Shown here one piece after another: positions 24,413 through 58,526 of a stretch of 64,000 nt of DNA. A program made the translations under genes and the position numbers. The DNA lies in assembly GCF_058153355.1 (NCBI RefSeq), contig NZ_CM177019.1; one strand, given 5' to 3'. Within the stretch, counting starts at the first letter, position 1. Every line of letters starts with the position of its first letter. The notes below the pieces were generated by a model. That model was not told where the DNA came from. It was given only the letters and a program-made list of their open reading frames with translations, and searched no databases.

Positions 24413-26074
24413 TTATTCTATGTTTTCTGCTACGGGAGTTGTTGAGGTTAAGGGTGAAGTCAATGCCGCTAGCGAGCCGCCTGAAACACCAATTTCATTG
24501 AGCAAGGAGTCAATCAGCGGTGCCTGTGTGCGGTAAGAAAGCGCGGCTGATAACGCTTGTTCCGCCAGATTTCCTCCACCAACGCTACCTGATATTGCAT
24601 CCCCTGCGGTACCACCACGGTTCAGACCATCGACCTGAATAATCTTAATACCGTCGATAGACTTCATTGGTTCCACAGATTTCTCAATTACTGCAGGGAG
24701 CGCCTGCAACAATGCCAGTTTGAATTTAAGGCTGGTTTGCTCGTCAGAAAGTACGTTGATAGCATCGTTCAGCGCACGTTGCGCTTCTGCTTCCGCCAGG
24801 CCTTTTTTACGCGTAGCTTCGGCTAACTCAACGATCGCCGCCGCCTGCATCTCTGCGGCTTCTTTTTCTGCTTTCGCCCGCACGGTCAGTTCAACCGCTT
24901 TGGTTTCTGCATCCTGCGCGGCAGCGATTAGGGCAACTTGTTTAGCACGATCGGCTTCTGCGGTCTGGCGAGTGGTTTCTACGTTTTGCTGGGCGCTTAC
25001 CGCTTCTGCAAGTGCAAGGTTGGCACGCGCTTCCGCTTGTGACTGCTGTTCCGATTTGGCGGCAATAGCGATCGATTTCGTCTGGTTGGCGATTTCGGTG
25101 ACCTGCTGCTGTTCGATCTCTTTAATGCGAACTTCACGTTCAGCTTCAACTTTTCTGGAACGGACGGCCTGTTCGCGGTCGATTTCCGTTTCCTGAATCT
25201 GTCGTTCAGCCAGAATTCGCGTCTGCTCTGCTTCCCGACGACGCTCGGCCTCAAAAGCCGCAATTTTCGCATTCTGCTCAGCGGTACGGGTTTTAACCTG
25301 CTGCTCCTGCTCAAGCGTCATAAACGCTTCTTGCTGTTCAATCTCCAGCTTCCGCGAAAGCTCATCACGGTTTTTCTCACGCACCGCAACTTCTACATCC
25401 TGTTCAACTTCGTTACGTTCGCGACGACGGCGCTCCGTCTCCTGCGTCAGCTTGGTTAAACCTTCGGCGTCAAAGGCGTTGTTAGGATTGAAATGTTCTT
25501 TCGACGTCTGGTTAAAGTTGGTAAGTGAAACGCTTTCCAGTTCCAGGCCGTTTTTCGACAGATCTTCAGCAACGGTATTTTGTACGCCCTGCACGAAGTT
25601 CTCGCGGGTATCCTGTAACTCATGCATGGTCATTTGTGCAGCTGTTGCACGGAGGGCATCGACAAATTTATCTTCAACCAACATACGTAAGTCTTCAGGC
25701 GACAGGGTGCGTTGCCCCAGCGTCTGGGCGGCGGTGGCAATACCTTCCACTGACGGTTTTACCCGCACAAAGAAAGCGACAACGACATCGACGCGCATAC
25801 GATCTTTCGTAATCAGGCTATCAATGGTTGAGCGGCTGACTTCCAGCTTCAGAGTATTCATATTGATGGGGATTATTTCATGAAAGATCGGCATCACGAT
25901 TGCGCCACCGCTCATTACCACTTTTTGCCCACCTAAACCAGTACGAACAAAAGCTTGCTCTGCCGAAGCGCGACGATAGAGCCTGGCGAAAATAATTCCA
26001 ATAATAAACAGAATGCATACGGCAATAATTGCGGTAAACATCCAGGAGGGCACAGAATTAACAATATCATCCAT
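24413..26074 (-). CDS. yqiK: Flotillin-like SPFH/band-7 membrane protein
   Basis: 553 aa; N-terminal transmembrane helix, SPFH core, long charged coiled-coil stretch. Confidence 0.85.
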   Translation of the reverse strand: MDDIVNSVPSWMFTAIIAVCILFIIGIIFARLYRRASAEQAFVRTGLGGQKVVMSGGAIVMPIFHEIIPINMNTLKLEVSRSTIDSLITKDRMRVDVVVAFFVRVKPSVEGIATAAQTLGQRTLSPEDLRMLVEDKFVDALRATAAQMTMHELQDTRENFVQGVQNTVAEDLSKNGLELESVSLTNFNQTSKEHFNPNNAFDAEGLTKLTQETERRRRERNEVEQDVEVAVREKNRDELSRKLEIEQQEAFMTLEQEQQVKTRTAEQNAKIAAFEAERRREAEQTRILAERQIQETEIDREQAVRSRKVEAEREVRIKEIEQQQVTEIANQTKSIAIAAKSEQQSQAEARANLALAEAVSAQQNVETTRQTAEADRAKQVALIAAAQDAETKAVELTVRAKAEKEAAEMQAAAIVELAEATRKKGLAEAEAQRALNDAINVLSDEQTSLKFKLALLQALPAVIEKSVEPMKSIDGIKIIQVDGLNRGGTAGDAISGSVGGGNLAEQALSAALSYRTQAPLIDSLLNEIGVSGGSLAALTSPLTSTTPVAENIE

Positions 26075-34343: not shown

Positions 34344-34363
34344 AGGTTGGCGTTACGTGCCAT
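34344..34363 (-). promoter_or_regulatory. Candidate mar/sox/rob box in the tolC promoter region
   Basis: Minus strand reads ATGGCACGTAACGCCAACCT, a close match to the marbox consensus AYnGCACnnWnnRYYAAAYn, about 85 nt upstream of the tolC start. Confidence 0.5.
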
Positions 34364-43239: not shown

Positions 43240-44285
43240 GTCGGATAATGAACGTCGGGCTACGCCCACTACGTGTTGGTAAGTTTTCGACACTGGTACG
43301 CCCTAAAAATCTGCTGTTGCTTGGTGGGCTGTTCCTGCTTGCGGTTGGAATACTGATATTCGGTCTGATGCAGGGTTCTTTCTCTGTTCCGGCATCGGAA
43401 GTAGGACGAGCGTTGTTTGCTCCAGAAAACGTAAGCACAGACGCACGTTATATTGTGCAGGATATTCGCTTGCCGAGAGTCATCATGGCATTGCTATGCG
43501 GGGCCATGTTAGGTATGGCAGGGGCCGCAATGCAATCCATTGCACGTAACGGCCTTGCCGATCCTGGTTTAATCGGCGTCAAAGAAGGATGTAGCGTGGC
43601 TGTGCTGTGGCTGATTTTCCAGTTTCCAATGCTGGGAATGTTCTGGCGTCCAGTGGCTGGTCTTGCTGGCGGCCTGTTGGTGGCTTTAATCGTGATTTTT
43701 TGTGCGCGCGATATTTCCCGCCCGCGATTTGTTCTGATTGGTATTGGTGTTTCCTGGTTTTTCGCCGCCGGTATCGGTGTATTTATGACCACTGCAGATG
43801 TTCGAGATGTACAAACTGCATTGATGTGGTTATCGGGAAGCCTGCATGCAGCTAACTGGATGTTAGTCGGTATTTCAGCCTGTTGGATGTTGCCAGCCGC
43901 TCTTTTATTGCTGTTCACCGCCAGGAAGGCGGATATCGCTCTGCTTGGTCATCAGGTGGCAACCGGGTTAGGCGTGAATAGTTCTCGCCTGGCGTTGTTA
44001 CGTGTCGCCGCACCCATAATCCTGACAGCCGTCTGCGTTTCGTGTGTTGGTAACATAGGTTTTGTCGGATTGATAGCACCCCATATATCACGTTTTATTC
44101 TACGTGGCGGGCAGACGACATTACTGCTGGGGAGCGCGGTATCGGGGGCGTTGTTAGTTATTCTGGCGGATAGCATTGGTCGTTTGGCTTTTTTGCCTTT
44201 GCAACTGCCTGCCGGAATCATTATCTCACTGATTGGTGGACCATTTTTTTTGCTACTGCTCTGGCAGCGCAGGAACAGTTTTTAA
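43236..44285 (+). CDS. ABC transporter permease, FecCD family, second subunit
   Basis: 349-aa polytopic membrane protein; start overlaps the upstream stop (ATGA). Confidence 0.85.
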   Translation: MSRIMNVGLRPLRVGKFSTLVRPKNLLLLGGLFLLAVGILIFGLMQGSFSVPASEVGRALFAPENVSTDARYIVQDIRLPRVIMALLCGAMLGMAGAAMQSIARNGLADPGLIGVKEGCSVAVLWLIFQFPMLGMFWRPVAGLAGGLLVALIVIFCARDISRPRFVLIGIGVSWFFAAGIGVFMTTADVRDVQTALMWLSGSLHAANWMLVGISACWMLPAALLLLFTARKADIALLGHQVATGLGVNSSRLALLRVAAPIILTAVCVSCVGNIGFVGLIAPHISRFILRGGQTTLLLGSAVSGALLVILADSIGRLAFLPLQLPAGIIISLIGGPFFLLLLWQRRNSF

Positions 44286-44295
44286 CGGGAGTTAT

Positions 44296-45243
44296 ATGCG
44301 TTTATTTTTTTCTCTGCTGATACTGTTGTCATTTTTTTCCCGTGCAACAGAACCTGTTCAGGTATTTACTGATGATTTAGGGCGCAAAGTCACTGTTCCT
44401 GCTCATCCAAAGAGAATTGTCTCTTTACACGATCTTGATATCACTATTCCTCTGATTGAGCTCGGTGTACCTCCTGTCGCCAGCCACGGGCGAACTCGGC
44501 CTGACGGTAGCCATTTCATTCGATCTGGCGCGTTATTGACAGGTGTCGACTTTGATAATTCATCGATCGCCTTTATTGGTACCGCTGATATTGATATTGA
44601 AGCGATTGTGGCGGCAAAGCCTGACCTGATCATCACAGAACCGACCCGTAATACGCCCATTGAACAACTTGAAAAAATTGCGCCCACGGTGAGCATTGAT
44701 CATCTCAAAGGGGGCGCGCCAGAAATCTATCGCAAGCTGGCAGAACTTACAGGAACGCAGTCGCAGCTGGCGATACTTGAACGCCGCTATCAGGCACAAA
44801 TCAATGCGCTGAAGGCGACGCTGGACAGCCAAAAAATAACGGTATCGGTGATTCAGGCAAACCAGGGAAAAATTAATGTGATGCATAGCTATCATTCGCT
44901 GGGGCGGGTATTACGCGATGCTGGTTTTCGTTTTCCGCCGCTGATTGAGAGCATTCCTGAAGGTGGGCGAATGGATGTGAGCGCGGAGCGTTTACCTGAA
45001 CTGGATGCCGATTTTGTTTTTGCAACCTGGCGCGGTGACACCGGTGGTAAACCTCAGGATGAGCTGGCAGCAATGGAAAAAGTCATGCCGGGATGGTGTC
45101 AGTTTCTGACTGCCTGTCGTTCCGGGCGTTATGTGCTGATTTCTCGTGAAGAGGCAATTTCTAACTCCTTTGCATCTCTGGGGCTGATGGCTGCGCAGAT
45201 ACAATCACAAATTGCAGGGCGACCTCTACCGGAGGCTAAATGA
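44296..45243 (+). CDS. Periplasmic substrate-binding protein, class III (siderophore/heme/B12-type)
   Basis: 315 aa from MRLFFSLLILLSFFSRATEP (signal peptide); typical size and architecture; GGGA ribosome-binding site upstream of the ATG at 44296. Confidence 0.8.
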   Translation: MRLFFSLLILLSFFSRATEPVQVFTDDLGRKVTVPAHPKRIVSLHDLDITIPLIELGVPPVASHGRTRPDGSHFIRSGALLTGVDFDNSSIAFIGTADIDIEAIVAAKPDLIITEPTRNTPIEQLEKIAPTVSIDHLKGGAPEIYRKLAELTGTQSQLAILERRYQAQINALKATLDSQKITVSVIQANQGKINVMHSYHSLGRVLRDAGFRFPPLIESIPEGGRMDVSAERLPELDADFVFATWRGDTGGKPQDELAAMEKVMPGWCQFLTACRSGRYVLISREEAISNSFASLGLMAAQIQSQIAGRPLPEAK

Positions 45244-46127
45244 TCCAGAAAGATAAAGCGCGGGTTGATATTTTTGGTGAGCGTTTTCGCACTCGCGCGA
45301 GTCAGTTAACGCCTGGGTTAAGAGCTGTCGCCAGCTACATTAATGAGCATCGTGAAGTGGTACTCGAGCAAACGGCGATGGAAATTGCGGCCACGTTGAA
45401 CACTTCCGATGCCACAGTTATCAGGGCTATACAGGCCCTGGGGTTTGCCGGGCTGCGTGATCTGAAACGCACTCTGGAACAGTGGCTTGGTCCAGCCCTT
45501 AGTTCCAGCGAAAAGATGTCTACGACGGTGAGTAACTTGACGAGCGATGTTAACACCGCAATCGACTTTGTTCTTGAAGGGCATTTGTATACCTGTAATG
45601 TCCTGTCAGAGCCTGAAAACCGCCACGCGCTTGCGCAAGCTGTAGCGTTGTTGGTGCAGGCACGGCAAGTCGCAATTTTTGGCATTGGCGCTTCGGGTAT
45701 TCTGGCGGACTATACCGCACGACTATTCAACCGCATAGGTTTGCCTGCCACGGCACTAAACCGTACGGGTATTGGCCTTGCCGAGCAACTGATCGCGCTT
45801 CAACGTGGCGATGTTCTGATCATGATGGCGCAAAAATCTGCGCACCGGGAAGGGGTGACGACGCTTCGTGAGGCGAGGCGGCTGGGGATCCCTGTTATTT
45901 TGCTGACAAACGCGCTGGATTCACGTTTTAGCAAAGACGCCAGTATCGTGATTCATGTTCCGCGCGGGGATGAAAAAGGGAAAACGCCGCTACATGGTAC
46001 GGTATTGTTGTGTCTGGAAATGATTGTCTGGTCGGTAGCTTCCGCAGTGCCGCAGCGTGCGGTTAAAACCATTAAGCGAATTAACGATTTCCATCGAGGA
46101 CTGAAAACGGGAAGAAAGAATGGCTAA
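45240..46127 (+). CDS. RpiR-family transcriptional regulator (N-terminal HTH_6 + C-terminal SIS sugar-phosphate-binding domain)
   Basis: 295 aa; HTH region (...QTAMEIAATLNTSDATVIRAIQALGFAGLRDLK) followed by a SIS-like fold (VAIFGIGASGILADYTARLFNRIG...); start overlaps the stop of the binding-protein gene. Confidence 0.75.
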   Translation: MIQKDKARVDIFGERFRTRASQLTPGLRAVASYINEHREVVLEQTAMEIAATLNTSDATVIRAIQALGFAGLRDLKRTLEQWLGPALSSSEKMSTTVSNLTSDVNTAIDFVLEGHLYTCNVLSEPENRHALAQAVALLVQARQVAIFGIGASGILADYTARLFNRIGLPATALNRTGIGLAEQLIALQRGDVLIMMAQKSAHREGVTTLREARRLGIPVILLTNALDSRFSKDASIVIHVPRGDEKGKTPLHGTVLLCLEMIVWSVASAVPQRAVKTIKRINDFHRGLKTGRKNG

Positions 46128-46171: not shown

Positions 46172-46486
46172 TTAAATCCCCGGTTGCAGAATACGAATAT
46201 TCATCTCCAGCACGTCGCCTTTTACGGCTTCGCTGTACGCCTTCATGTGCGGGGTTTGCAGGTGCGCTTCAAGGTGCGCGATGCTTTCCCACTGCTCAAT
46301 CATCACGATAGAATCCGGTGCCATAGACTGGAAACTCACGCCAGCAGCGCAATCCACCATTGGCGCATAGCCGTGGCAACCTTCTTCTTTCAGTACGGTT
46401 GGAACGATTTTAGCAAACTGATCCAACACTGCCTGACGGTGATGTTGACCTGGACGAGTACGGATTTCTGCGATTACTGTAATCAT
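46172..46486 (-). CDS. ygiN: Quinol monooxygenase (ABM domain)
   Basis: 104 aa, MITVIAEIRTRPGQHHRQAVLDQFAKIVPTVLKEEGCHGYAPMVD... Confidence 0.92.
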   Translation of the reverse strand: MITVIAEIRTRPGQHHRQAVLDQFAKIVPTVLKEEGCHGYAPMVDCAAGVSFQSMAPDSIVMIEQWESIAHLEAHLQTPHMKAYSEAVKGDVLEMNIRILQPGI

Positions 46487-46516: not shown

Positions 46517-47098
46517 TTAACCAAAAATTTCCACAAGATGCTTGCGATATTCTTCAGTATAGCGGGGAACATCAGGCATTTTTATCACGTCATTAGCGAT
46601 AAATGTCGGCAGCGGTTCCATACCAAGGAATTGGTTTGCTTTATGGAATGGTAGATACACACCGTCAACGCCAACCCCGTGGAAGAACTGATCTTTTTCG
46701 GTGAAAGCTTCCATTGGTGCGTTCCAGGTCAGGGAAAGCATATATTTTTTACCTTGTACCAGACCGCCAGAACCGTATTTTTTCGACGGATCTTTGCGGG
46801 TACGACCATCGCTGGCATACAGCGTACCGTGACCTTCGGTGAATACATCATCAATGTATTTTTTCACCGTCCACGGCGCGCCCATCCACCAGCCTGGCAT
46901 CTGCCAGATCACCACATCAGCCCAGAGAAAGTTTTGTACTTCCGCTTTGACATCGTAGTCGCTGTCGGCGCGAACGATGCGGACATCATGCCCGAGGTCG
47001 CGCAGCGTGCCATCCGCGACTTCGGTCAGGGTGTCGTTCAGTTGACCATTGGAGTGGGCGAATTTTTTCGCGCCGTTGATAATCAGGATGTTGCTCAT
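46517..47098 (-). CDS. mdaB: NADPH:quinone oxidoreductase MdaB
   Basis: 193 aa, MSNILIINGAKKFAHSNGQLNDTL... Confidence 0.92.
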   Translation of the reverse strand: MSNILIINGAKKFAHSNGQLNDTLTEVADGTLRDLGHDVRIVRADSDYDVKAEVQNFLWADVVIWQMPGWWMGAPWTVKKYIDDVFTEGHGTLYASDGRTRKDPSKKYGSGGLVQGKKYMLSLTWNAPMEAFTEKDQFFHGVGVDGVYLPFHKANQFLGMEPLPTFIANDVIKMPDVPRYTEEYRKHLVEIFG

Positions 47099-47159
47099 TT
47101 TTTAACCTCAAGGTGAGACGTTTGCCGACTATAGTACGTCACAGAGCGGTACGGTGAAA

Positions 47160-47180
47160 TTAGCAAAATGTGCAAAGTCT
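47160..47180. promoter_or_regulatory. Candidate mar/sox/rob-type box upstream of mdaB
   Basis: Reverse complement contains GCACATTTTGCTAATT (GCAC-N5-GCTAAT), resembling the marbox consensus; flanked by duplicated AATTAGCAAAA motifs at 47158-47170 and 47187-47199. Confidence 0.35.
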
Positions 47181-47360
47181 TTTGCGAATTTAGCAAAAGT
47201 CTGATCTTGCTCCGATTCACCGATGCAGGATAAATATTTTCTGAAAATGACAATACTGATAGCCATTCCTCATAATTCCTACTCGCACCGGATTAATTTA
47301 CAGGTTTGGTTCGGTTTTTTGGGGATTAAAAATATGGCGTTGGATAAGTAAAAATGAAAA

Positions 47361-47381
47361 TATCAACGCGTCACGTTGATA
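47361..47381. promoter_or_regulatory. Perfect 8-bp inverted repeat TATCAACG-N5-CGTTGATA upstream of ygiZ (candidate operator)
   Basis: Seen directly in sequence, 34 nt upstream of the ygiZ start. Confidence 0.4.
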
Positions 47382-47414
47382 ATTATAAATGGATTTTTAT
47401 GAGCGTGCTAACAT

Positions 47415-47744
47415 ATGTTAAAGCATAAAATTCAAACAATATTTGAAGCTCTGTTATATATAATGCTTACTTATTGGTTAATAGATGCTTTTTTTGCATT
47501 CAATAAGTATGACTGGATGCTTGAGTCGGGAGACAATATTTGCAGTATACCTTCCGTTTCAGGCGAAGATCGTATATTGCAAACAATGATTGCAGCATTT
47601 TTTCTTCTGACGCCACTTATTATTATCTTAAGAAAACTCTTTGTGCGAGAAATGTTTGAGTTTTGGTTATATGTAATCTCGCTCGTTATTTGTTTGGTTT
47701 GTGGTTGGTGGCTTTTTTGGGGACGGTTTATATTTTGCTATTAA
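47415..47744 (+). CDS. ygiZ: Small inner-membrane protein
   Basis: 109-110 aa with three hydrophobic helices; position between mdaB and qseC. Confidence 0.8.
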   Translation: MLKHKIQTIFEALLYIMLTYWLIDAFFAFNKYDWMLESGDNICSIPSVSGEDRILQTMIAAFFLLTPLIIILRKLFVREMFEFWLYVISLVICLVCGWWLFWGRFIFCY

Positions 47745-47789
47745 TAAAATCTATGAGAGTCGTTTTAACGGCTCTCATAGACAGAGAAG

Positions 47790-49139
47790 TTACCAGCTTA
47801 CTTTCGCCTCAAATCCACCTTGTTCCGCATTCCCAAACTCAACATTCATGCCATGCAGCTTGGCGATTCGCTGGACAATTGAAAGCCCAAGTCCACTGCC
47901 GGTAGCGGTTTGTCCGGGTGGGCGATAGAAGCGTTCGCCAATTCTCGCCAGTGCCTCTGGTGTCACACCGGGGCCGTTATCCCTCACGATGAAATTATCG
48001 GCATTCAGCGTGACGTCCACCACGCTACCTTGTGGACTGTAGCGCACGGCGTTATCCAGCAAATTTCGCACCAACAAACTTAGCAATAGCGGTTGTCCGG
48101 TGCGTTTGATGCCGTGGGCATTGAGTGTCAGTCGCACGTCAATTTTCGCTTGCTGCGCCGTGTGGTAAATATCCATCACCGACGATTGCAGGAGATCTTC
48201 AAGCGGGATCTCCGCGACGTCCTGAAGGTTATCCAGTGAGTCCAGCCGCGATAGCGTGAGCAGTTGATCAACCAGACGAGTAGCACGATCGATTCCGGAA
48301 TGTAATTGAAGCAGCGCTTTTTTCCGCGCCTGCGGATCATCGTCAGAGAGCTGCGCAACTTCGGTTTGCACTTTCAGCGCCGTTAACGGGCTACGAAGTT
48401 CGTGAGCTGCGTCGGAGGTAAAGCGTCGTTCACGAACCATCATCGCATGTGTGCGGGCGAACAGTTGATTCAACGACTCAACCAGTGGACGCACTTCGCT
48501 GGGTACGCCCGTCGCGTTTAGTGGTTTTTCCGAGTCAGGGTCACGCATACGTAGTGCCAGCGCCAGTTTGTTCAGCGGCGCGAGTTCTCGTCCCAATAGT
48601 ACCATCATAATGATTAACATAATCGGCAGTGCGACCAGCCACGGGATCAATTGCCCGGCAACAATCGCCAGCGCCATGTCTTCACGGTATTCCCATTCCT
48701 GACCAACAACGATGCGATATTTGCCATCAGGTGAGGTCATCCAGACAAAACGCCAGGGATCGTCTTCACCGACCAGTTGCCCGTCAGCAAAACCTTCCCG
48801 TTGATAGCTATAGGGAATATCTTCTCCGTTATCGCCATCGTTAAGGACCATTCTGCCGTCGTGGGTAAAGATGGCAAAGGTCAGCGCATCGTCATCAACA
48901 TGACCGTGTTTTAATTTATTTGGCGTCTGTGCCATGCGATCCGCCGCGTTGATTTCGTTGAGATCGAGCGTACTTAACCGTTTGGCAAACAGCATCAGTT
49001 GGGTGTCGAACAACTCATCGACGTTATCCGTTGTTTGTTTCCAGGCGACAAAGCTGGAAAGCAGCCAGGTCACCGAGGCCAGAATTAAAAAGATTAGCGT
49101 CAGCCTGACTCGCAGACTAAGACGTTGGGTAAATTTCAT
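47790..49139 (-). CDS. qseC: Sensor histidine kinase QseC
   Basis: 449 aa; two transmembrane helices, H-box [10 protein letters not shown], HATPase_c. Confidence 0.93.
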
Positions 49140-50391: not shown

Positions 50392-50874
50392 ATGAAAAAC
50401 CTGACACTGGATGTAAATATTATCGATTTCCCATCAATCCCTGTGGCGATGTTGCCACATCGCTGTAGCCCTGAATTGCTCAACTACAGCGTGGCGAAAT
50501 TTATCATGTGGCGTAAAGAAACGGGGCTTTCTCCTGTTAACCAAAGCCAGACTTTTGGTGTCGCCTGGGATGACCCTGCCACCACCGTACCGGAAGCGTT
50601 TCGCTTTGATATCTGCGGCAGCGTTAACGAACCGATTCCCGATAATCGTTATGGCGTGAGTAATGGTGAACTTACCGGGGGACGTTATGCCGTGGCCCGC
50701 CACGTTGGCGAGCTGGACGATATTTCACATACGGTATGGGGCATCATTCGCCACTGGCTGCCTGCAAGCGGCGAGAAAATGCGTAAAGCACCGATTCTGT
50801 TTCACTACACCAATCTTGCCGAAGGGGTAACAGAGCAGCGACTGGAAACGGATGTTTATGTGCCGTTGGCGTGA
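50392..50874 (+). CDS. ygiV: GyrI-like domain transcriptional regulator
   Basis: 160 aa. Confidence 0.85.
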   Translation: MKNLTLDVNIIDFPSIPVAMLPHRCSPELLNYSVAKFIMWRKETGLSPVNQSQTFGVAWDDPATTVPEAFRFDICGSVNEPIPDNRYGVSNGELTGGRYAVARHVGELDDISHTVWGIIRHWLPASGEKMRKAPILFHYTNLAEGVTEQRLETDVYVPLA

Positions 50875-58295: not shown

Positions 58296-58526
58296 TTATA
58301 ACCTTGGTTTATAAGGACTGTTACGAACGTCTAAGCGGTAATGCGCTCTTGCTGTTTCGTCTTTAACTTGCTGAATTTCCGGACGCAGGGCGTCAATATC
58401 CTGTTGCAGTTGATTAATTTTGTTATTCAATGCCTGAATATCATGTTCCAGGTGTTCAATTTTGGCATTGCTGGTACAGCCAACAAGACACAGCGCCAGC
58501 GGAATGGATAAGATAAGTTTGTTCAT
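58296..58526 (-). CDS. Lpp-like small lipoprotein (paralog of the adjacent yqhH)
   Basis: 76 aa from MNKLILSIPLALCLVGC (lipobox LVGC), then Lpp-like coiled-coil heptads (...NNKINQLQQDIDALRPEIQQVKDE...). Confidence 0.65.
   Translation of the reverse strand: MNKLILSIPLALCLVGCTSNAKIEHLEHDIQALNNKINQLQQDIDALRPEIQQVKDETARAHYRLDVRNSPYKPRL

Follow-up and report, generated by a model that had tools for sequence, protein, structure and literature searches.

A candidate composite promoter upstream of Escherichia mdaB: a CrgA/YafC-type LysR operator that may share its promoter-proximal site with a marbox

The window analysed here, a stretch of 64,000 nucleotides from contig NZ_CM177019.1 (assembly GCF_058153355.1), contains the Escherichia ygiN-mdaB / ygiZ / qseCB locus, as judged from the list of open reading frames and from annotated BLAST matches. 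Of 5,426 complete E. coli genomes, 5,425 contain a match to the region, with identities of 95-99%; the MdaB protein of the window shows 100% identity with its counterpart in Escherichia whittamii. A sequence-only reading of this DNA had placed the start of mdaB at 47098 on the minus strand and had taken its product for a quinone reductase; both the open reading frame and the annotation of the matching E. coli genomes bear this out. In Salmonella, mdaB and ygiN have been found to be co-transcribed by RT-PCR (PMC2653508). The two proteins also occur as a natural fusion, the 308-aa protein P0005, in which a flavodoxin-like domain (PF02525) is joined to an ABM monooxygenase domain (PF03992). Just past ygiN, at 44233-46127 on the plus strand, we see an open reading frame resembling periplasmic binding proteins and a regulator of the MurR/RpiR family. 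This is an accessory segment of some Escherichia genomes, whereas K-12 has parE directly after ygiN. The features of the control region are collected in Table 1.

To obtain a phylogenetic footprint, the upstream regions of 80 mdaB loci across the Enterobacteriaceae were aligned together with that of the window, which gives a set of 81 promoters. In 77 of the 81 loci, qseC lies immediately upstream of the conserved block that is described below; its stop codon is a few bases away from the block and about 100-110 nt away from the ATG of mdaB. A ygiZ gene between qseC and mdaB is found only in four of the 81 loci (L001, L002, L015 and L074) plus the window. The boundary of this insertion, which is carried by few lineages and corresponds to 47200-47790 of the window, directly adjoins the left arm of the inverted repeat on its upstream side. 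In the stretch from ygiZ to the mdaB control region, the minus strand has a promoter-like TTAGCA-18-TATAAT (47411..47382). Directly after this TATAAT there is an inverted repeat with a 9-bp stem, TATCAACGTGACGCGTTGATA, and then TTTTCATTTT (47381..47361). The repeat in 47361-47411 could be a terminator of qseBC read-through or a protein site for ygiZ.

Table 1. Positions of genes, candidate regulatory sites and promoter elements (window coordinates, except for the two K-12 rows)
Feature	Position	Strand	Description	Basis
mdaB	46517..47098	-	regulated gene; NADPH:quinone oxidoreductase, 193 aa; ATG at 47098	open reading frame, BLAST annotation
ygiN	46172..46486	-	quinol monooxygenase; operon partner downstream of mdaB	open reading frame, annotation
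ygiZ	47415-47744	+		
qseC, qseB		-		
Inverted repeat CTTTTGC-TAAATTC-GCAAAAG	47179..47199	-	proposed YafC/CrgA-type T-N11-A LysR recognition site (RBS); holds the distal copy	
20-mer TTTGCACATTTTGCTAATTT	47157..47176	-	forward marbox candidate; holds the proximal copy	consensus, PWM, conservation, published prediction
TGC-ACATTTT-GCT	47162..47174	-	imperfect second TGC-N7-GCA copy; candidate activation site (ABS) of the LysR-type regulator, lying within the marbox	
-35-like hexamer TTCACC	47153..47158	-	weak; 16 bp upstream of the -10; over the 3' end of the marbox	
-10 hexamer TACTAT	47131..47136	-	conserved mdaB promoter	
Predicted transcription start	47121..47124	-	7-10 nt downstream of the conserved -10; conserved CAAAC block there	
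Shine-Dalgarno GAGG of mdaB	47106..47109	-	conserved as TGAGG	
Equivalent of K-12 start 3170500 (U00096.2)	47150	-		S2 Table of PMC12052159
K-12 motif copy (locus L096)	1060-1079 of the locus		upstream of dkgB	
K-12 motif copy (locus L096)	2882-2901 of the locus		across the yafC start codon	

The region upstream of mdaB had drawn attention because of two copies of a motif around a near-palindrome, which were described as duplicated motifs together with a marbox-like element. The strings themselves are all present: AATTAGCAAAA at 47158-47168, AATTTAGCAAAA at 47187-47198 and TGCAAAGTCTTTTGC at 47171-47185 on the plus strand, and GCACATTTTGCTAATT at 47173..47158 on the minus strand. If one mismatch at most is allowed, TTTTGCTAAWTT is found four times in the 64 kb as compared to 1.13 expected, and three of the four matches fall within 47157-47198, so the local repetition is real and goes beyond chance. 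The extended likeness, in the TAA(A)TT part of the copies, is confined to certain lineages, and only TTGC is both common to the copies and conserved; in other genera, the distal copy reads TTATTGC and is followed by a variable spacer. The picture of two marbox-like duplicates that flank a palindrome finds no support, since the distal copy is an arm of a conserved inverted repeat of the T-N11-A type, and the "near-palindrome" is the junction of the right arm of this repeat with the marbox. We lean towards the view that the copies first described are the left arm plus spacer of a LysR recognition site, on the one hand, and the RE2 half of a marbox, on the other.

In the 81 Enterobacteriaceae promoters, the conserved block has the form TTnTTGC-N7-GCAAAAG-AC-TTTGCACATTTTGC-(T)n-ATTT, and its geometry is fixed: the repeat, 2 nt, the 20-mer, 20 nt and TAnnAT. 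The major-base frequency is 0.965 in the left arm TTnTTGC and 0.995 in the right arm GCAAAAG, but 0.473 in the 7-nt spacer between them, for which we count 64 distinct sequences among the 81. The four-fold degenerate sites of mdaB have a value of 0.717, which is far below the 0.96-0.99 of the conserved block. TGC-N7-GCA is kept in 78 of the 81 promoters; that is, the arms are conserved and the spacer is free in its sequence but fixed in its length. The centre of the repeat, 47189, is found at about -65 relative to the start that is predicted from the conserved -10. Conserved arms, a free spacer of fixed length, the T-N11-A form and a centre near -65 together indicate a LysR-type recognition site, and we consider it very probable that the distal repeat is such a site.

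Outside this set, there are distant Enterobacterales in which mdaB-ygiN is not located beside qseBC. Here, the repeat and its distance from the -10 are kept, whereas the marbox decays, with GTAC or ACCT in place of GCAC. Likewise, in Shimwellia, in Tenebrionibacter and in the loci L092-L093, the repeat is kept while the proximal marbox is degraded or lost.

Several other candidates were considered for these sequences and rejected. A hand check did not support a sigma-54 promoter, as the TTGCAC...TTGC spacing is off by 2 nt and there is a TG instead of GG. The same holds for an operator of PurR or of another LacI-type regulator, for GCAAA and TTTGC are 4 nt apart, not 2, and have no central CG. 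YhaJ, a LysR-type regulator linked to quinols, was rejected as the binder because its published box is TCA-N7-TGA and not TGC-N7-GCA. A literature search for papers naming both YhaJ and mdaB returned none.

The proximal copy belongs to the 20-mer TTTGCACATTTTGCTAATTT, which agrees with the marbox consensus AYnGCACnnWnnRYYAAAYn at 12 of the 14 specified positions, with mismatches at positions 1 and 18. The window contains 15 matches to this degenerate consensus with two or fewer mismatches, as compared to 16.3 expected; such matches occur at chance frequency, which is a familiar weakness of this consensus, and the agreement alone proves little. Scoring with a position weight matrix (PWM), which the sequence-only reading had proposed as a check, was more favourable to a marbox. 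We used 11 sites at known MarA targets, taken from the supplement of PMC12052159, from K-12 promoters and from the tolC site of the window. With this matrix, which is small and partly derived from sites picked by consensus, the mdaB site reaches 12.4 bits and rank 3 of 127,972, and only 2 of the 11 training sites do as well or better when scored by leave-one-out. The tolC marbox, when held out of the matrix, is found at rank 92, below the mdaB site.

Only two sites in the window outscore that of mdaB, namely GCAGTAATTGAGAAA (24680-24694) and GCATTGAATAACAAA (58419-58433), both on the minus strand. The tolC marbox, ATGGCACGTAACGCCAACC (34345-34363, minus strand), served as a positive control. 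It is located in the tolC-nudF intergenic region on the strand of tolC and has one mismatch to the consensus; its core GCACGTAACGCCAAC is the tolC site given in the supplement of Trigg et al. 2025 (PMC12052159).

The orientation of the proximal element is forward, that is, toward mdaB, and its 3' end overlaps the weak -35-like TTCACC. Its distance from the conserved -10 is 20 nt as compared to 18 nt in micF, nfo and sodA and 17-19 nt in fumC, the mdaB start being a predicted one only. Among the 81 orthologous promoters, the major-base frequency is 0.985 for marbox positions 1-14 and 0.63 for positions 15-16. The RE2 half is weaker in Klebsiella and Enterobacter, where it reads GCTCATT and has 3 mismatches. 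The proposal of a marbox near mdaB holds, at the level of sequence analysis, for the proximal element, on account of its consensus match, PWM score and orientation, and does not hold for the distal copy, which makes a poor marbox and is an arm of the LysR-type repeat. We find it fairly likely, from these scores and the conservation, that the proximal element is a working marbox.

That mdaB could be under mar/sox control, as had been suggested from the sequence, agrees with the literature. In PMC2989944, MdaB is given as a member of the mar regulon with reference to Martin & Rosner 2002; the upregulation of mdaB via MarR/MarA is reported in PMC6561319, and its regulon membership is also cited in PMC3139621. 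Deletion of ramA lowers mdaB and ygiN along with the classical marbox genes acrAB, tolC, nfsA and nfo. Furthermore, the exact K-12 15-mer GCACATTTTGCTAAT upstream of mdaB is a predicted marbox in Trigg et al. 2025 (PMC12052159, S2 Table). The same table has a second predicted marbox, GCTAAATTCGCAAAA, which overlaps the distal element and has 2 mismatches to the 15-mer pattern used there. For starts on the plus strand, the distances printed in the S2 Table are 10 above the difference of the coordinates (the pair 3170500 and 3170484, for instance, has a printed distance of -26), so its class assignments need rechecking. The high-quality EcoCyc MarA targets listed in PMC12052159 do not include mdaB. 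The main text of the Salmonella ChIP-seq paper does not name mdaB either, and our search returned no ChIP-seq report of binding. In summary, the marbox half of the finding is already published in substance and explains only one of the two copies. As the membership of mdaB in the mar/sox regulon has long been known, the original finding alone adds little.

At the -10, TAnnAT follows the 20-mer after 20 nt in 79 of the 81 orthologues, and the same offset is seen in the distant taxa and in dkgB promoters, while the -35-like hexamer is moderately conserved as TT(T/C)ACC. A sigma-70 scan gave no strong promoter near the element, which is what one would expect of an activator-dependent promoter. For Salmonella mdaB, primer extension has been unsuccessful (PMC2653508). 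We mapped K-12 start sites to the window by means of the coordinate of the mdaB ATG and of the identical K-12 sequence. The nearest K-12 starts in PMC12052159 correspond to 47150 and 47198, which are 52 and 100 nt upstream of the ATG, and neither of them fits the prediction from the conserved -10 (about 26 nt upstream of the ATG). The start at 47150 does fit an extended -10, TGcTAATTT (47165..47157), which is located inside the marbox. This extended -10 is intact only together with the RE2 sequence GCTAATTT, as found in Escherichia, Salmonella and Citrobacter, and not in Klebsiella/Enterobacter, which have GCTCATTT. The start at 47150 may represent a lineage-specific second promoter that would be occluded by bound activators, as at lpxC P1/P2.

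The 20-mer can be read in yet another way, as TTTGC-ACATTTT-GCTAA, 21 bp downstream of the first copy of the repeat. The TGC-N7-GCT contained in it has its centre at 47168, about -44 relative to the predicted start, and the K-12 dkgB promoter has a TGC-N7-GCT in the corresponding position. None of the seven bases that separate TGC from GCT varies among the 81 promoters, while they do vary in the distant taxa, whereas the spacer of the putative recognition site is free. The invariance of this stretch beside a free spacer points to a second reader of the sequence. Since a marbox would place just such an additional constraint on A6, C7 and the T-run, this suggests that, in this clade, both readings are real. 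In Neisseria, CrgA site 1 likewise contains TTTGCAC with a T-run after it, so the resemblance to the RE1 of a marbox could be a by-product of the LysR site. Neisseria is not known to have MarA-type regulators. It seems to us rather likely from the spacing and the conservation that the proximal element is also a LysR activation site. With slightly less assurance, we favour a composite promoter, that is, a CrgA/YafC-type LysR operator of which the promoter-proximal site doubles as a forward marbox.

Which regulator could bind the repeat? In the window there is no LysR gene that adjoins mdaB; yafC is outside the window and, in Escherichia, is unlinked to mdaB. However, in Neisseria meningitidis the LysR-type regulator CrgA activates the divergent mdaB gene, and YafC is the closest E. 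coli homologue of CrgA, with 59% identity (PMC2724274). The first 63 residues of both proteins, which include the winged helix-turn-helix, are nearly identical. The 63-bp DNase footprint of CrgA given in PMC2724274, when reverse complemented, contains ATTATTTC-ATTTGAC-GCAAAAG (site 2), which is one mismatch away from the enterobacterial consensus and is followed by TTTTGCACTTTT (site 1). We took this strand as the mdaB sense strand because of its TATAAT and terminal ATG, a reading made here.

The enterobacterial genomes themselves provide a second line of evidence. On contig L093, the gene divergent to mdaB encodes a LysR-type protein with 75% identity to E. coli YafC, and this yafC orthologue adjoins a dkgB-like aldo-keto reductase gene, as in the dkgB-yafC synteny of K-12. 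The mdaB/yafC intergenic region of L093 contains ATTATTGC-TGTATGA-GCAAAAG, and its distance from the -10 is the same. K-12 has the motif TTnTTGC-N7-GCAAAA exactly twice in its 5-kb dkgB-yafC locus, where 0.01 occurrences are expected, and none of 200 shuffles contained two. The copy upstream of dkgB is part of the same layout as at mdaB in K-12, in Dickeya and in a metagenomic enterobacterial contig, with three different spacers: the repeat, 9 + 20 + 20 nt, and then CATAAT or GATAAT. The copy at the yafC start codon is present in K-12, Dickeya, Lelliottia and L202, and absent in the one Salmonella contig covered. A motif scan of metagenomes returned at least 120 matches, mostly by chance; among the matches listed, the informative ones were a single mdaB locus and a single dkgB-yafC locus. 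What we read directly from the DNA is the sequence with its pattern of conservation and its constant spacing, and the fact that the motif recurs at dkgB, at yafC and at the mdaB gene adjacent to yafC. The K-12 copies suggest a small YafC regulon of detoxifying reductases, and the regulator of the distal repeat is probably YafC, to judge from the similarity to CrgA and from the recurrence of the motif. A YafC ChIP-exo dataset exists (PMC6237786). In our literature search we saw no discussion of YafC and mdaB together; yafC appeared beside mdaB only in a reference list.

The two elements may be explained in simpler ways, and the simplest is a marbox only: the proximal site would bind MarA/SoxS/Rob, the distal one would be a weaker marbox or an accessory contact, and no LysR regulator would be involved. 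This agrees with the very good consensus and PWM scores of the proximal site, with the published prediction of GCTAAATTCGCAAAA over the distal element (PMC12052159) and with the place of mdaB in the mar/sox regulon. It agrees less with the distal element itself, which was rejected as a second marbox: by hand count it has 5 of 14 mismatches to the 20-mer consensus, its PWM rank is 75, and the A6 and C7 of GCAC, which are essential to a marbox, would have to come from the spacer, where any base is tolerated. As the repeat is also kept in the taxa named above where the marbox is degraded or lost, and is found at dkgB and yafC, both of which are without a marbox, we regard this explanation as quite improbable. 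Conversely, both elements could be YafC sites, the likeness to a marbox could be a coincidence, and the effects of mar, sox and ram could be indirect. The presence of TTTTGCACTTTT in the footprinted CrgA site 1 of Neisseria, the related CTCTGCATTTT at the same place in dkgB promoters, the absence of mdaB from the high-quality EcoCyc targets of MarA and from the ChIP-seq reports that we found, and the gap of 20 nt to the -10 where classical class II promoters have 18 nt are all in line with this. Yet a coincidence would have to produce rank 3 of about 128,000 with a matrix of known marboxes, and the stretch between the half-sites is invariant in the studied clade only, just as an additional reader would constrain it. 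Moreover, mdaB and ygiN respond to the ramA deletion together with the classical marbox genes, and Martin & Rosner 2002 is cited in the literature for regulon membership. A LysR operator without a marbox thus appears unlikely, if less so than a marbox alone.

Two further explanations start from the neighbouring qseBC genes. If the TTTGC units were direct-repeat sites of QseB (PreA), they would explain the PreA-dependent activation of mdaB-ygiN in Salmonella, where overexpression of PreA raises mdaB 7-fold in arrays and 32-fold in qRT-PCR and direct binding was hypothesised by the authors (PMC2653508); the position of qseC directly upstream of the element in 77 of the 81 loci would fit as well. 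We consider a QseB operator very unlikely, because the pattern is inverted with a free spacer and not a tandem of 10-11 bp, the TTTGC units recurring at 21 and 9 bp, and because the repeat is kept where qseBC is not beside mdaB and recurs at dkgB and yafC. Nothing like the PmrA-type box of this regulator family is visible. Even less credit can be given to the idea that the repeat is no protein site but an RNA or DNA hairpin, for example a terminator of qseBC read-through or a structural element. The Escherichia sequence does fold to -15.5 kcal/mol with a z-score of -2.4, and no preB-mdaB co-transcript was found in Salmonella (PMC2653508). But the stem is A/U-rich and has no U-tract after it, a terminator scan makes no call, and the arms are imperfectly complementary in most genera (TTATTGC and GCAAAAG). 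The right arm never varies, hence there is no covariation, and the same repeat is found in two places where one would not expect a terminator, namely in front of dkgB and at the start codon of yafC. A search of Rfam gave no known RNA family, only a meaningless match to a snoRNA (E = 0.55).

A candidate for an extra reader of the marbox was STM3175/YgiV, which is Rob-like. It was rejected for the window, since ygiV (50392-50874, plus strand) encodes a GyrI-like ligand-binding domain of 160 aa only, as in K-12. Salmonella STM3175 has an additional AraC-type DNA-binding domain, is Rob-like and is strongly induced by PreA; therefore, it could explain the effects of PreA on Salmonella mdaB via the marbox.

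For the composite promoter, we infer who binds, where transcription starts and in which direction the regulation goes. The stretch 47157-47199 would be the upstream half of the mdaB-ygiN promoter and would be read by two activator systems. A CrgA/YafC-type LysR regulator would bind CTTTTGC-N7-GCAAAAG, with its centre some 65 bp ahead of the start that is predicted, and also the weaker TGC-N7-GCT site 21 bp downstream. From this activation site it would activate mdaB under quinone or electrophile stress, like CrgA in Neisseria. The activation site would coincide with a forward marbox abutting the weak -35, to which MarA, SoxS or Rob (in other genera, RamA) could bind as a monomer, so as to recruit RNA polymerase as at class II promoters. 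More tentatively, and with odds that we would put a little below even, YafC could be the enterobacterial counterpart of CrgA, responsive to quinones or electrophiles and with a regulon of mdaB-ygiN, dkgB and yafC, the proximal site at mdaB having been co-opted as a marbox.

What would follow from this? The genes mdaB and ygiN form a pair that detoxifies quinones, and drug susceptibility is influenced by mdaB. What is new here is the proposed LysR-type layer, with a specific set of YafC targets and the motif TTnTTGC-N7-GCAAAA, and YafC is still listed as an uncharacterised transcription factor of E. coli in papers of 2022-2025. If the composite promoter is real, LysR and MarA/SoxS/Rob would compete or cooperate on a single stretch of 20 bp, and if both activator families share one site, this is a compact case of two stress pathways that converge on one promoter. 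Methylene-butyrolactone reportedly induces E. coli MdaB, according to a study from 1996, and this induction would be linked to the CrgA mechanism known from Neisseria.

Finally, we compared the mdaB promoter with systems that are already known. With the class II marbox promoters of micF, nfo, sodA and fumC it shares an asymmetric 20-bp site in which one helical turn separates a GCAC RE1 from an A-rich RE2, the forward orientation, the 3' end on a weak -35 and a target in the detoxification of redox stress. It differs from them in its RE2, which is GCTAATT and not RYYAAAY, in the gap of 20 nt and in the nesting within a LysR-type operator; furthermore, the binding at mdaB is a predicted one. 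At E. coli lpxC, with its P1 and P2, a marbox likewise lies over the core of one promoter and in class II position for the downstream promoter (PMC12052159). Both lpxC promoters and their activation by MarA have been demonstrated experimentally, whereas the starts and the regulation of mdaB are predicted.

The closest parallel is the crgA-mdaB operator of Neisseria, which is bound by the octameric LysR-type CrgA (PMC2724274). Here, the regulated gene, mdaB, and the family of the regulator are the same, and the recognition sequences are nearly so, ATTATTTC-N7-GCAAAAG in Neisseria and ATTATTGC-N7-GCAAAAG in enterobacteria. The orientation toward mdaB (with the footprint as read here) and the second site, TTTGCAC with a T-run, agree as well. 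Unlike in Neisseria, the regulator gene in Escherichia is unlinked to mdaB (yafC is beside dkgB) and not divergent from it, and the binding of YafC is presumed; the two sites at Escherichia mdaB are one helical turn closer than those of Neisseria, and the second has gained a marbox-like RE2. In classical LysR promoters such as those controlled by BenM/CatM and CbnR, a recognition site near -65 is combined with an activation site near -35 to -45. The mdaB promoter resembles these in its T-N11-A at about -65, in the degenerate copy two helical turns downstream and in its weak -35. On the other hand, the putative regulator of mdaB is encoded elsewhere, and its activation site seems to be used by another family of activators as well.
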